Part shown: piece after piece, positions 11,509 through 22,146 of the stretch
Layout: the number at the start of each line of letters is the position of its first letter
Numbering within the stretch: position 1 is the first letter of the stretch
From: Acidobacteriaceae bacterium
Lineage (GTDB): Bacteria > Acidobacteriota > Terriglobia > Terriglobales > Acidobacteriaceae
Reading direction: 5' to 3'
Length of the DNA: 64,000 nt
Assembly: GCA_027449545.1 (NCBI GenBank)
Contig: DAIDLI010000138.1
Location: forward strand, 7,977 to 71,976
The notes under the pieces: model-generated
What the model was told of the DNA's origin: nothing
Database searches by the model: none
The model's input: only the letters and a program-made list of their open reading frames with translations
Position numbers and translations under genes: made by a program

Positions 11509-12315
11509 ATGCAGTCGCAACATCCATCGAAAGCGCCGCAGTTGTGGCTGGCCTATCCGGCCGATCTGCGCGATCCGGGTGCGATCGCGGAGTGCCGCGC
11601 GCTGCTTAGCGAGGAAGAGCAGGCGCGCGCGCAGCGGTTTCACTTCGAGCGCGATCGCCGCGCTTTTGTGGCGGGTCGCGCCCTGGCACGAATCGCGCTT
11701 TCCCATGCGCATCCGCTGCCGCCGCATTCATGGGAATTCAGGAATAACCCCTACGGAAAGCCCTCCGTTGAGCCGGAGTGCGGATTGCGGTTCAATATTG
11801 CCAACTGCGCAGAACTGGTGGTCTGCCTGCTCGCGCCCGACTCCGAGGTGGGCGTGGATGCGGAGCCGTTCGCGCGGGCCGGGCAAATCATGGGCATCGC
11901 GTCGAAGGTATTTTCCGCGACAGAGCTGGCACAGATGACGGCACTCCATGATTCGGAACAGCCGGACCGCGCTCTGTCGCTCTGGGTGTTGAAGGAAGCC
12001 TACGTGAAGGCGCGAGGCCTGGGGCTTTCCCTGCCGCTGGAAGAATTTTCGTTTGTCTTTGAAAGCGACGGCTCCATCCGGCTCGCAATGCACGCCGGTC
12101 TGGATGACCGGCCGGAACGGTGGCGTTTCTGCCTGTTCGATCGCGCCGATCATCGCGTGGCGCTGATGGTGGAGAACGCGAGCAGCCAGGCCCCTCGTTT
12201 GGAGGAATTGCACTCCGCGGCGGCTGGCGTGGAAGTATGGGAGGCGCGGCCGCCGCACAGTCCCGGGATGCGTCTGAGCGTTCCAGGACCGCAATGGTTT
12301 TCCGCCGCGCCCTGA
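11509..12315 (+). CDS. Sfp-type 4'-phosphopantetheinyl transferase
   Basis: NPYGKP, VGVDAE, WVLKEAYVKARGLGL. Convergent with the PKS. Confidence 0.93.
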   Translation: MQSQHPSKAPQLWLAYPADLRDPGAIAECRALLSEEEQARAQRFHFERDRRAFVAGRALARIALSHAHPLPPHSWEFRNNPYGKPSVEPECGLRFNIANCAELVVCLLAPDSEVGVDAEPFARAGQIMGIASKVFSATELAQMTALHDSEQPDRALSLWVLKEAYVKARGLGLSLPLEEFSFVFESDGSIRLAMHAGLDDRPERWRFCLFDRADHRVALMVENASSQAPRLEELHSAAAGVEVWEARPPHSPGMRLSVPGPQWFSAAP

Positions 12316-12327
12316 CCGGCGCGAGAG

Positions 12328-20408: not shown

Positions 20409-22146
20409 GAAAATTCTCCAGGAACAGGTGTTCGATGCCGGTGCCGAGAAAGGTCTCAATGGCCTCTTCCGGCGTGTTGACGATGGGCTGCCCCTTCACG
20501 TTAAAGCTGGTGTTGAGCACCATCTGCCGGCCGGTGGTCTCGCCTACAGCCTGGAGCAGCGCGTGAAACTCGGGATTGTCGCTGCGACTGACCGTTTGCA
20601 GGCGCGCCGAGCCGTTCACATGCGTGATGGCCGGCAGCAGGTTACGCATCTCCGGGCGTACCTGCACGATCGAGATCATGTACGGAAACTGCGCGCCCTC
20701 GGCCACTTCGAACCAGCGGTGCGCCTCTTCCACGGCGCAGGCCGGGGCAAAGGGGCGGAATGCCTCGCGCTTCTTCACCATAGCATTGATGCGGTCGCGC
20801 ATCTCGGGATGACCGGGATCGGCGAGAATGCTGCGATTGCCGAGCGCGCGCGGCCCGTACTCCATGCGCCCGCGGTGCCAGGCCAGGACGCGGCCGTCGG
20901 CGATCAGCCGGGCCGCGCATGCGCAGGTGTCTTCCAGCGACTCGTAACGCTTCCAGGTGATGCGGCCGTCGAAGCGATGAAGCGCGGCCACCACCTCGCT
21001 GGGATCGTATTGCGGTCCCAGGAGCGGCGCGGGAAAGCGCTTGTTGGGCACCGGGTGTTGCAGAGAGCTGCGATAGAGAGCGGCGCCAAGAGCAATGCCG
21101 TCGTCGCCGGCCACTGGCTGAACATAGATTTCGTCAAACAGCCCGGAGCGAACCAGCTTGCCGTTGGCGGTGCAGTTGAGGGCCACGCCGCCGGCCAGGG
21201 CCAGCTTGTTCAGCCCGGTTTCGCGCGCAAAGTGCTCGCAGATGTGCATCACCACCCGCTCCAGACACTCCTGCAGCGCGGCGGCCACGTCTTCGTGATT
21301 CGCGTTCACGCTCTGCTCGGGAGCCCGGCGCGCGATGAGATTCTCATCCAGATAAGCCCGCGTGGCGCTGTAGGTCTCGCGCTCCTCGCGGGTGCGGTTG
21401 AGCTTCAGTATGGGAATGCGAATGGTGCCGTCGCGACAAAGCTCGACCGCCTTCTCGAAGAAGCCGCGATAACGGGCCGGATCGCCGTAAGGCGCCAGAC
21501 CCATGATCTTGTACTCGTCGGAATTGAAATCGAAGCCCAGGTGCAGGGTCACCAGCGAGTAGAGCACGCCGATCGAGTCATTGGCCCCGATGGTGCGCAG
21601 CTTCTCAAGCTGGCCATCGTGAAAGTCATAGGCGGTGAGGCTCTCCGTTTCGCCCATCGCGTCATTCACCACCACCAGGCACTCGTCCCAGCCGGAGGTC
21701 CAGGCCGCACTGGCGGCGTGCGCCAGATGATGCCCAACCTGGTGAACCCGCTCCAGCGGAAACCCGGGCAGATCGCGTACCACCTGCCTCAGCAGCACCT
21801 GCTTTGAGAAGACATGCTCATAGAGTGCTTGGGAGGTCTCATCCTGCTGGTAGAGGCCGCGGTAGGGCGCGTAGTCGAAACCGTGGGCAATCTCGTCGAT
21901 CTCCTCGAGACCGATGCCAGCCTGCTTCAGGCAGAAGTGGATGGCGTTGACTGGAAAATCGCCGGTGTGCTTCCTGCCGGTGAAGCGTTCCTCTTCGGCC
22001 GCAGCCACCACCTGCCCGTCAATGACCAGCGCGGCGGCAGCGTCCATGCCCTGGGCGATGCGGTACTCGCGCGGCTCCAGCCCGGGGAAACGGGCGCGCT
22101 TGAAGCTCATCGCGTTTTCGAGGCCGCTGATCCCAATGATCTTCAT
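20386..22146 (-). CDS. Carbamoyltransferase, CmcH/NodU family
   Basis: AAAEEERF, HHLAHAASA, EYKIMGLAPYG, LAGGVALNCTANG, EYGPRALGNRSILADP, LNTSFNVKGQPIV. Confidence 0.95.
   Translation of the reverse strand: MKIIGISGLENAMSFKRARFPGLEPREYRIAQGMDAAAALVIDGQVVAAAEEERFTGRKHTGDFPVNAIHFCLKQAGIGLEEIDEIAHGFDYAPYRGLYQQDETSQALYEHVFSKQVLLRQVVRDLPGFPLERVHQVGHHLAHAASAAWTSGWDECLVVVNDAMGETESLTAYDFHDGQLEKLRTIGANDSIGVLYSLVTLHLGFDFNSDEYKIMGLAPYGDPARYRGFFEKAVELCRDGTIRIPILKLNRTREERETYSATRAYLDENLIARRAPEQSVNANHEDVAAALQECLERVVMHICEHFARETGLNKLALAGGVALNCTANGKLVRSGLFDEIYVQPVAGDDGIALGAALYRSSLQHPVPNKRFPAPLLGPQYDPSEVVAALHRFDGRITWKRYESLEDTCACAARLIADGRVLAWHRGRMEYGPRALGNRSILADPGHPEMRDRINAMVKKREAFRPFAPACAVEEAHRWFEVAEGAQFPYMISIVQVRPEMRNLLPAITHVNGSARLQTVSRSDNPEFHALLQAVGETTGRQMVLNTSFNVKGQPIVNTPEEAIETFLGTGIEHLFLENFHVVRATA

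Follow-up and report, generated by a model that had tools for sequence, protein, structure and literature searches.

We have characterized a four-gene cassette in a 64,000-nucleotide stretch of DNA from an Acidobacteriaceae bacterium (assembly GCA_027449545.1, contig DAIDLI010000138.1, positions 7,977 to 71,976 of the forward strand; hereafter the window). It encodes a carbamoyltransferase (CT), a nonribosomal peptide synthetase (NRPS) loading didomain composed of an adenylation (A) domain and a peptidyl carrier protein (A-PCP), a polyketide synthase (PKS) and a 4'-phosphopantetheinyl transferase (PPTase). Most likely, the four genes together encode a self-contained NRPS-PKS hybrid line for a very small, nitrogen-rich acid, a product predicted from sequence, and CT most likely belongs to an unstudied branch of its family that works with carrier-protein modules and without the usual catalytic histidine. 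Coordinates are positions of the window, and residue numbers count from the called gene starts.

Gene content and layout of the cassette

The genes of the cassette are as follows.

11509 to 12315, plus strand: Sfp-type PPTase, 268 residues; Pfam PF01648 (66 bits) and PF22624 (38 bits), both above cut-off
12328 to 18534, minus strand: single-module type I PKS, 2068 residues; domains from Pfam and NCBIfam tables
18546 to 20408, minus strand: A-PCP, stand-alone NRPS loading didomain, 620 residues; Pfam AMP-binding (7e-93), AMP-binding_C and PP-binding
20386 to 22146, minus strand: CT of the NodU/CmcH/TobZ family, 586 residues; PF02543 (4.7e-53) and PF16861 (1.2e-66), both above gathering score

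Because domain E-values across the cassette range from 1e-14 to 1e-93, these open reading frames (ORFs) do not arise by chance. The initial annotation, made from this sequence, had described three tightly spaced minus-strand genes and a convergent PPTase, and its gene content and coordinates were right except at the starts of PKS and A-PCP, where the long ORFs overshoot the true starts (that of PKS extends to 18804, the called start being the ATG at 18534); this is the sole change of coordinates. The reading frames of CT and A-PCP overlap by 23 nt, an arrangement kept across loci; a gap of 11 nt separates A-PCP from PKS, whose ATG is preceded by GGAG; and 12 nt lie between the stop codons of the convergent PKS and PPTase genes. 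A terminator-like hairpin occurs at 11398-11419, before the PPTase's own upstream region. The PPTase has both parts of an Sfp-type enzyme, the ACPS domain and the AASDHPPT-type N-terminal half, and its best NCBIfam match, HetI, falls under the cut-off; an NCBIfam equivalog was reached by none of the four cassette proteins.

Two absences previously remarked upon were borne out: a Pfam domain scan revealed no condensation (C) domain within the window, and no exporter or glycosyltransferase lies within ~10 kb of the cassette. At gathering thresholds, Rfam identified only a tRNA-Sec elsewhere in the window and no riboswitch upstream of CT, and alignment of the 250 nt upstream of CT in 79 loci showed nothing conserved beyond GGAG/GAAGG sequences resembling a ribosome binding site.

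Conservation, dispersal and transcription

A one-genome-per-species scan retrieved 294 relatives of CT, and counts of gene context refer to the best 80 of these loci. CT is represented by more than 120 clusters (90% identity level) at 77-89% identity. Among the best 80 loci, 66 contain CT, A-PCP and PKS in the same order, six end too early for the arrangement to be read, three contain only CT and A-PCP, and five contain CT only. Nearly all are from Terriglobia (Terracidiphilus, other Acidobacteriaceae, Sulfotelmatobacter, Acidoferrales and Bryobacteraceae), and one metagenome-assembled genome (MAG) is labeled Dormiibacterota; the cassette is also carried by a cultured organism, Telmatobacter bradus DSM 23630 (locus L061; NZ_CP184532.1, ~579-601 kb). 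The genes flanking the cassette differ between loci, and we conclude that it is a conserved, mobile unit, shared by many Acidobacteria of soil and peat. Of the 66 complete loci, 34 have a convergent PPTase after PKS. Relative to the window, sequence identity across loci declines from CT (69-84%) through A-PCP (56-73%) and PKS (50-65%) to PPTase (30-54%); within the cassette, CT and the ketosynthase (KS) domain of PKS are conserved best.

A locus 99% identical to that of the window (L006) is present in a MAG designated 'Acidobacteria bacterium', and the window sequence itself is present in mine-drainage and groundwater metagenomes. For the orthologous cluster at locus L002, 31-mers were found in 14 peat or permafrost metatranscriptome assemblies in shares of 0.32-0.67, which suggests that this cluster is expressed in situ. 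Just upstream of the cassette in L002 (5452-8759) and in L086 (253-3085), in contexts otherwise different, are genes for an extracytoplasmic function (ECF) sigma factor and a Ser/Thr kinase, which may constitute a regulator pair; the pair is absent from the window.

The loading didomain and its predicted substrate

The two domains of A-PCP map to the following positions.

18912 to 20333, minus strand: adenylation domain, approximately residues 26-499 (Pfam, shifted to the called start)
18633 to 18818, minus strand: PCP domain, approximately residues 531-592 (PP-binding, 2.6e-14), with the motif LGAHSL

The protein begins ~25 residues before the A domain, with no C domain upstream. The A domain has the core motifs, Lys517 among them, and scores 440 bits against TIGR01733 (cut-off 317); all 67 of the 67 orthologues keep the Ser of LGAHSL. 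A-PCP is an ordinary Gly-type NRPS loading didomain. Its top-ranked solved match is linear gramicidin synthase LgrA, best over residues 1211-1801, which we take to be the glycine-activating second module of that enzyme. With the ten specificity positions anchored on motifs A4, A5 and A10, the A-domain code reads DILQLGMIWK (D213, I214, L217, Q253, L279, G281, M304, I312, W313 and K499); 51 of the 67 orthologues have exactly this code, and the remainder differ only at positions 239, 299 and 330. A survey of 2051 A domains reported DILQLGMIWK in all Gly-activating domains that contain a monooxygenase insert, with Gly codes varying mainly at positions 299, 322 and 330 (PMC12283262). The code retains Asp235, which fits a substrate with a free alpha-amine. 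We therefore predict from the code, with high confidence, that the starter is glycine.

A carbamoyltransferase without the canonical general base

CT comprises a Kae1-like N-terminal domain and a YrdC-like C-terminal domain, and its best solved relatives are NovN, GdmN and TobZ (E-values 1e-84 to 4e-114). The HHLAH metal motif (HxxxH; residues 139-143) aligns with HHLAHA of NovN and TobZ and is kept in 80 of 81 orthologues. Motifs of the C-terminal, carbamoyl-AMP-forming domain are conserved relative to NovN and GdmN (GPRALGNRSILAD, KKREAFRPFAP, THVxGSARxQTV and LNTSFN); the dependence of carbamoyl transfer on carbamoyl phosphate and ATP is a prediction. All catalytic motifs of the cluster had at first been read as intact. 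This is so for the KS, acyltransferase (AT), ketoreductase (KR), dehydratase (DH), acyl carrier protein (ACP) and thioesterase (TE) motifs of PKS; in CT, methionine occupies the place of the general-base histidine.

22045 to 22047, minus strand: codon of Met34 of CT, aligned with the general-base His of O-carbamoyltransferases

In HMMER alignments Met34 pairs with H14 of TobZ (chain 3vex has N there, other chains H) and with the corresponding His of NovN, and the GdmN alignment begins one residue after it, which puts Met34 at the position of H27. H27 of GdmN acts as the general base and takes the proton from the acceptor hydroxyl, the H27N variant is inactive, and this His has been called universally conserved in the GdmN subclade (PMC9633730). 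The window CT has no such His before its DxxAA motif. Across the 81 orthologues position 34 is M in 63, H in 13, Y in three, and T and L in one each. The 150 nearest family representatives at 50% identity have His in 107 of the 141 that cover the position (nine do not cover it), and the nearest clusters among them share with the window CT an N-terminal insert of ~20 residues (…FKR…(F/W)PGL..REYRI.QG-x-D(S/A)AA) and have M, L, F, Y, Q or G at the base position; the insert-bearing subclade overall has M, L, F, Y, Q, G or H. The HxxxH motif and 189 other columns of CT show no or almost no variation. A residue that tolerates so many substitutions, in a protein so constrained elsewhere, cannot be an essential base in the insert-bearing subclade. 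Such variability would fit an acceptor that needs less activation, for example an amine, as the candidate acceptor, and on sequence grounds the window CT is a member of the family by fold and not a canonical O-carbamoyltransferase.

We weighed, and regard as unlikely, a conventional O-carbamoyltransferase that acts on the 3-hydroxyl made by KR (yielding an O-carbamoyl-4-amino-3-hydroxybutyrate, or a leaving group eliminated by the DH-like domain) or on a hydroxyl of the released product. In 68 of 81 orthologues the general base, whose loss in H27N inactivates GdmN, is replaced by Met, Leu, Thr or Tyr, and the predicted product of the window has no hydroxyl left after dehydration; arguing for O-carbamoylation are the solved relatives NovN, GdmN and TobZ, annotated as O-carbamoyltransferases or with hydroxyl acceptors, the basal cassette clade, which keeps His34, and a DH that is atypical in position and motifs. 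Further evidence on this alternative comes from the genes with which CT is associated, described below. A role for CT in loading carbamoyl onto the PCP thiol as the PKS starter was considered and dropped; the glycine-specific A domain would then have no role.

Association of the carbamoyltransferase with glycine-loading carrier modules

In the sister protein P0243 (2414 residues) CT is fused to NRPS domains, in the order CT, partial C, A interrupted by a luciferase-like monooxygenase (MOX) insert, PCP, C and PCP. The CT portion is 49% identical to the window CT and has Phe at the general-base position, and the A-domain code, read by eye, is again DILQLGMIWK. Unfused sister CTs occur at loci L087 (1938-13776) and L089 (1037-6693), directly upstream of an NRPS that starts with C-A(MOX)-PCP; the two genes overlap by 4 nt in L089, and the first A-domain codes of L087 and L089 are DILQLGMIW? 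and DILQMGMVWK, respectively. In L087 the NRPS is followed by a PKS of the form KS-AT-ACP-TE. The window A domain is ~50% identical to these sister A domains both before and after the point at which MOX is inserted, and the window KS-AT is 54% identical to that of the L087 PKS. A profile search with the sister CTs that lack His (alignment A1) retrieved mostly the window's own family and four P0243-like proteins.

A metagenome scan with alignment A2 retrieved soil CT relatives 60-70% identical to that of the window, of which 80 loci were examined for context, and none of the distant sister CTs. Twenty-two of the 80 loci have CT followed by A-PCP, with KS next where the contig allows, and in six A is followed by CT and a small ACP; an adenylating gene lies within 8 kb of CT in 12 of the 13 loci that have ~6 kb or more on both sides. 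A luciferase-like monooxygenase is nearby in all six of the A-CT-ACP loci (L109, 5226-11744, and L111, L136, L150, L162 and L163), which contain this monooxygenase, a stand-alone A protein, CT and a 90-residue ACP, and whose CTs are 60-68% identical to the window CT and mostly have His. The one triad locus annotated, L109, also has a gene for a FemAB-like transferase (seen in this one of the six), lies among glycosyltransferases, UDP-glucose dehydrogenase and asparagine synthase genes, and possibly directs aminoacyl or carbamoyl decoration of a polysaccharide.

These triads are the grounds for supposing that, in the window too, TE or another enzyme transfers a (carbamoyl)aminoacyl-polyketide unit onto an envelope, exopolysaccharide (EPS) or lipid acceptor and that no free acid is formed. 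We consider such a transfer improbable, since the flanks differ here and among the 66 orthologous loci with no glycosyltransferase or polymer gene co-conserved, the Ser/Asp/His triad of TE is normal, and variants of PKS end in C-A-PCP-TE of the NRPS kind, as one would expect of lines that make small, soluble peptides. The envelope or EPS decoration offered as one outcome by the initial annotation thus finds no support at this locus, where flanks are unconserved and glycosyltransferases lacking, in contrast to the related triad of L109, which lies in a glycosyltransferase-rich region.

Partial cassettes provide a separate view of the association. Loci L005, L012, L015 and L049 share one syntenic site, GH88-ThuA-CT...CCA-TsaD-FabF-RmuC, at which the trio is complete in L005, PKS has been lost from L012 and L015, and both PKS and A-PCP have been lost from L049, a stepwise decay series of the cassette. 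Constraint on CT was scored over the 189 columns invariant in 67 complete loci, whose own CTs break a median of 0 and a maximum of 9 of these columns. CTs of loci without PKS only (L012, L015 and L051) break 0, 0 and 1, and the A-PCPs of PKS-less loci break 0, 0 and 2 of 120 invariant columns; CTs without A-PCP break 23, 14, 9, 5 and 1. Selective constraint on CT therefore tracks A-PCP and not the PKS that bears KR and DH. CT-only copies elsewhere (L068, L070, L083 and L081) have many changes at otherwise invariant positions.

Four independent lines (the fusion, the unfused sisters, the soil relatives and the pattern of constraint) support the conclusion that CT goes with the glycine-loading carrier module. 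They bear on O-carbamoylation as well: CT remains fully constrained in L012, L015 and L051 without a PKS, hence without KR, it decays without A-PCP, and fusions and triads of CT with A or carrier modules occur without any KR. Because the canonical general base is absent and constraint follows A-PCP rather than PKS, CT probably does not act late, as a tailoring enzyme that O-carbamoylates the product. That CT is a mere neighbor with an unrelated substrate, the product of A-PCP and PKS being plain 4-aminobut-2-enoate, seems very improbable, for the 23-nt overlap is conserved across loci, the genes are fused in the sister family (P0243), CT-only copies gather changes at invariant sites, and CT and KS are the parts of the cassette most conserved, even though five loci keep CT without A-PCP or PKS and many members of the family occur in other contexts.

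Anatomy and predicted single use of the polyketide synthase

Pfam and NCBIfam define the domain order of PKS as KS-AT-(psiKR)KR-DH-ACP-TE, psiKR being the structural subdomain of KR.

17380 to 18522, minus strand: KS domain; Cys180, His316, His356
15988 to 16941, minus strand: AT domain; GHSLGE and HAFH, malonyl-type motifs
14542 to 15819, minus strand: KR structural and catalytic subdomains; LDD (B-type), Ser1289/Tyr1303/Asn1307; NCBIfam KR prefix at residues 906-985, Pfam KR
13654 to 14511, minus strand: DH domain; His1373, Asp1544; Pfam PKS_DH_N and PS-DH
13213 to 13401, minus strand: ACP domain; GGHSL, Ser1738
12331 to 13122, minus strand: TE domain; Ser1877/Asp1904/His2039, with a long lid insertion; Pfam PF00975

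Conservation was scored in 57 orthologues (48 for TE). The Cys-His-His of KS, GHSxG and HAFH of AT, L(D/E)D and Ser/Tyr/Asn of KR, and the Ser of ACP are invariant or nearly so; the His and Asp of DH are retained in 57 of 57, and those of the TE triad in 48 of 48, with its Ser in 51 of 57. Mean identity of the window domains to the orthologues is 79% for KS, the most conserved PKS domain, 66% for KR, 64% for AT, 50% for DH and 46% for TE. The closest solved KS-AT is PDB 8xju/8xjy (841 bits), and the closest solved DHs are 5hqw and 7zmf (entries for putative polyketide synthase DHs) and the curacin CurF/H/J/K DHs. DH follows KR (DH at residues 1342-1627, KR at 1138-1331), an order that is non-canonical for cis-AT modules and that recurs in P0121 and P0128, and its motifs are variant: Hx4Gx4P around His1373, FGP replacing YGP, and, after Asp1544, G in the place of Q/H. 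Assignment of this DH-like domain to a pyran-synthase or isomerase type was dropped, as the catalytic His and Asp are both invariant. The Pfam scan found no sulfotransferase domain between ACP and TE of the kind present in terminal-alkene modules (CurM/Ols-type). In some long-read MAGs (L016, L027, L067 and L078) PKS is in several frames or lacks part of AT, representing pseudogenes or assembly indels.

In one subclade TE is replaced by C-A-PCP-TE, giving proteins (P0121-P0129, 3125-3166 residues) of the form KS-AT-KR-DH-ACP-C-A-PCP-TE that are again preceded by CT and A-PCP and trailed by a convergent PPTase; L086 (10001-19381) is a further locus with this replacement. Read by eye, some of the added A domains have a Ser-like code (DVWHFSLVDK), others a Gly-like one (DILQVGLIWK). 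Since a C domain comes right after ACP, the enoyl-ACP product is handed on as in an ordinary module, which argues against iterative polyene synthesis. The variants imply a small family of products consisting of the head group plus one amino acid, and show that what the family conserves is its CT/Gly/one-ketide head.

An iterative PKS resembling the polyunsaturated fatty acid (PUFA) and enediyne synthases, which likewise place KR before DH, would convert a glycine primer into a polyene acid, and the domain order, the lack of an enoylreductase and a weak, sub-threshold NCBIfam similarity to PfaA (TIGR02813, 383 bits against a cut-off of 1010) are compatible with such a synthase. We hold this to be quite improbable, given that the sister proteins put C-A-PCP-TE in cis after KS-AT-KR-DH-ACP, a modular hand-over; that Pfam reveals a single ACP after DH and none of the hallmarks of the iterative type (tandem ACPs, a chain length factor or an integrated PPTase); and that the closest solved KS-AT and DH matches are modular-type, e.g. 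CurL and CurF/H/J/K. The initial proposal of one acid extended once with malonyl, reduced, dehydrated and released is supported by the glycine code and by the C-A-PCP-TE variants, and we consider a single extension with reduction and dehydration probable.

Proposed pathway and product

We propose the following sequence of reactions. PPTase would prime PCP and ACP, and the A domain, judging from its specificity code, would adenylate glycine and load it onto its own PCP. CT would form carbamoyl-AMP from carbamoyl phosphate and ATP, as does TobZ, and carbamoylate the free amine of Gly-S-PCP, so that ureidoacetyl-S-PCP with an N-terminal cap results. KS would accept the ureidoacetyl starter and catalyze one condensation with malonyl-ACP loaded by the malonyl-type AT; the B-type KR would produce a (3R)-hydroxy intermediate and DH an (E)-2-enoyl thioester, (E)-4-ureidobut-2-enoyl-ACP; and TE would release (E)-4-ureidobut-2-enoic acid (C5H8N2O3, 144.053 Da). 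Aza-Michael closure may convert this acid to its isomer 2-oxoimidazolidin-4-yl-acetic acid, and relatives with C-A-PCP-TE would add Ser or Gly before release.

As a whole, N-carbamoylation of Gly-S-PCP by CT followed by one extension, reduction and dehydration to a ureido unsaturated acid is the best reading of the cassette, and one to which we give an even chance; of its parts, carbamoylation of the glycine nitrogen while glycine is bound to PCP is likewise evenly balanced. The small carbamoylated vinylogous acid envisaged in the initial annotation is the same compound class as that favored here, and it stands as a prediction.

Several points weigh against this pathway. The product is a prediction, and N-carbamoyl-aminoacyl thioesters can cyclize to hydantoins in competition with extension. 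The acceptor of CT is deduced from gene linkage and a missing residue: the substitution of His34 is permissive evidence only, in that the basal clade retaining it (13 of 81) also has the full cassette; O-carbamoylation could still proceed with a relocated base, supplied for example by the conserved N-terminal insert; and every solved member of the family is annotated as an O-carbamoyltransferase or has a hydroxyl acceptor. DH, with its non-canonical FGP, DxxxG and position after KR, could differ in activity or role, and iterative use of a TE-terminated module is possible, support for one extension coming from the C-A-PCP-TE variants. Finally, DNA contamination of the metatranscriptomes is a possible source of the L002 31-mers.

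More broadly, and with somewhat less than even confidence, we suggest that CT represents an undescribed class of the TobZ/NodU family, carrier-protein-dependent N-carbamoyltransferases that lack the general-base His and ureido-cap the first glycine of NRPS-PKS lines, and that the minimal cassette encodes, under active transcription, a conserved small metabolite (a ureido Michael acceptor or a cyclic urea) typical of Terriglobia in peat and acidic soils. A role of the metabolite as a signal or antimetabolite is a guess. If the pathway is correct, N-carbamoylation of a carrier-bound amino acid without a canonical base would be a new type of reaction for a well-studied enzyme family and would offer a simple genetic handle on ureido capping for NRPS engineering, and a conserved small metabolite would be indicated whose ecological role becomes testable. 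Few natural products of Acidobacteria have been characterized, although the phylum dominates many soils; the cassette is tiny and self-contained, is widespread with a cultured host, and with its four genes could be expressed heterologously.

Genes surrounding the cassette in the window

Upstream of CT is a 690-nt non-coding stretch (22147-22839) without an Rfam match, followed by a gene for a 434/458-residue protein without a Pfam family (22840-24216) that occurs only in the near-identical L006 and is not co-conserved with the cassette. Neighbors farther away include sulfatases and TonB-type receptors of the CarboxypepD_reg/OMP_b-brl_4 kind. Three such receptors (27314-31027, 33241-36588 and 44645-48244) are interspersed, between 24432 and 48244, with two sulfatases, an arabinofuranosidase-like protein, a glucoamylase-like protein and a LacI regulator; these genes look like polysaccharide-utilization loci, unrelated to the cassette. 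A complete selenocysteine machinery occupies 399-5004.

399 to 2318, minus strand: selB
2315 to 3817, minus strand: selA
3745 to 4839, minus strand: selD-like gene of the AIR-synthase family
4914 to 5004, plus strand: tRNA-Sec (Rfam, 74 bits)

At the other end of the window dnaA (58359-59762, minus strand) adjoins yidD/yidC (60561-63340, plus strand); the window is therefore near the chromosomal replication origin, from which the cassette is ~40 kb distant.

Comparison with known systems

The window CT shares with TobZ, NovN and GdmN the two-domain fold, the HxxxH metal motif and the C-terminal carbamoyl-AMP motifs, and departs from them in having Met34 in place of the base His (H14 in TobZ, H27 in GdmN) and in bearing the extra conserved N-terminal insert of ~20 residues. 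Its gene is translationally coupled to A-PCP, or fused in the sister family, and its proposed acceptor is a carrier-bound amine rather than a hydroxyl of a finished metabolite.

Dedicated capping of a starter amine has a parallel in the initiation module of LgrA (F-A-PCP), in which the amine of the first carrier-bound amino acid is formylated before chain extension. The likeness to the modification proposed here is one of analogy and not homology; LgrA adds formyl by an in-cis formyltransferase domain, whereas the window would add carbamoyl by a separate TobZ-type enzyme. Cylindrospermopsin assembly starts with the amidinotransferase CyrA and the A-PCP-PKS protein CyrB, guanidinoacetate (an N-modified glycine) being extended by a PKS with KR and DH; there, glycine is modified before adenylation by an enzyme unrelated to CT, and the line is much longer. 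The window A-domain code, in comparison, keeps Asp235, as expected for a free alpha-amine. Modules of the syringolin and glidobactin lines, also much longer, extend an amino acid with one malonyl unit, reduced and dehydrated to a 4-amino-2-enoyl unit. Among solved structures, PDB 8xju/8xjy is the best match to the window KS-AT and the peptide synthetase 8xjz_C a high-ranking match to A-PCP; we believe these to be ClbI and ClbH, respectively. Entry 8xjz combines a polyketide synthase with a peptide synthetase, from which we infer an in-trans NRPS-to-PKS hand-over. The 8xju system differs from the window in having no KR, DH, TE or carbamoyltransferase.

Related in sequence are the A(MOX) glycine modules (PMC12283262) and the L087, L089 and P0243 proteins, with which the window shares the code DILQLGMIWK and identities of ~50% in A, 49% in CT and 54% in KS-AT, and from which it is distinguished by an A domain without the monooxygenase insert, the absence of a leading C domain, and a PKS with KR and DH. 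A precedent in chemistry is bosamycin (bosamycin B), a nonribosomal peptide with an N-terminal carbamoyl cap that depends on a carrier protein, the stand-alone PCP BsmI, and on a starter C domain, in a system where no CT of the NodU/TobZ type was found (PMC8161544). The window has a TobZ-type CT and no C domain.

Our literature searches found no description of this cluster and no report of a TobZ-type enzyme that N-carbamoylates a carrier-bound amino acid, and the first impression that no characterized cluster has this composition agrees with the lack of an evident counterpart in the literature searched or in NCBIfam. Set beside the systems above, what is new here is the combination of an NRPS-PKS hybrid with an unusual, probably N-acting, carrier-linked carbamoyltransferase.

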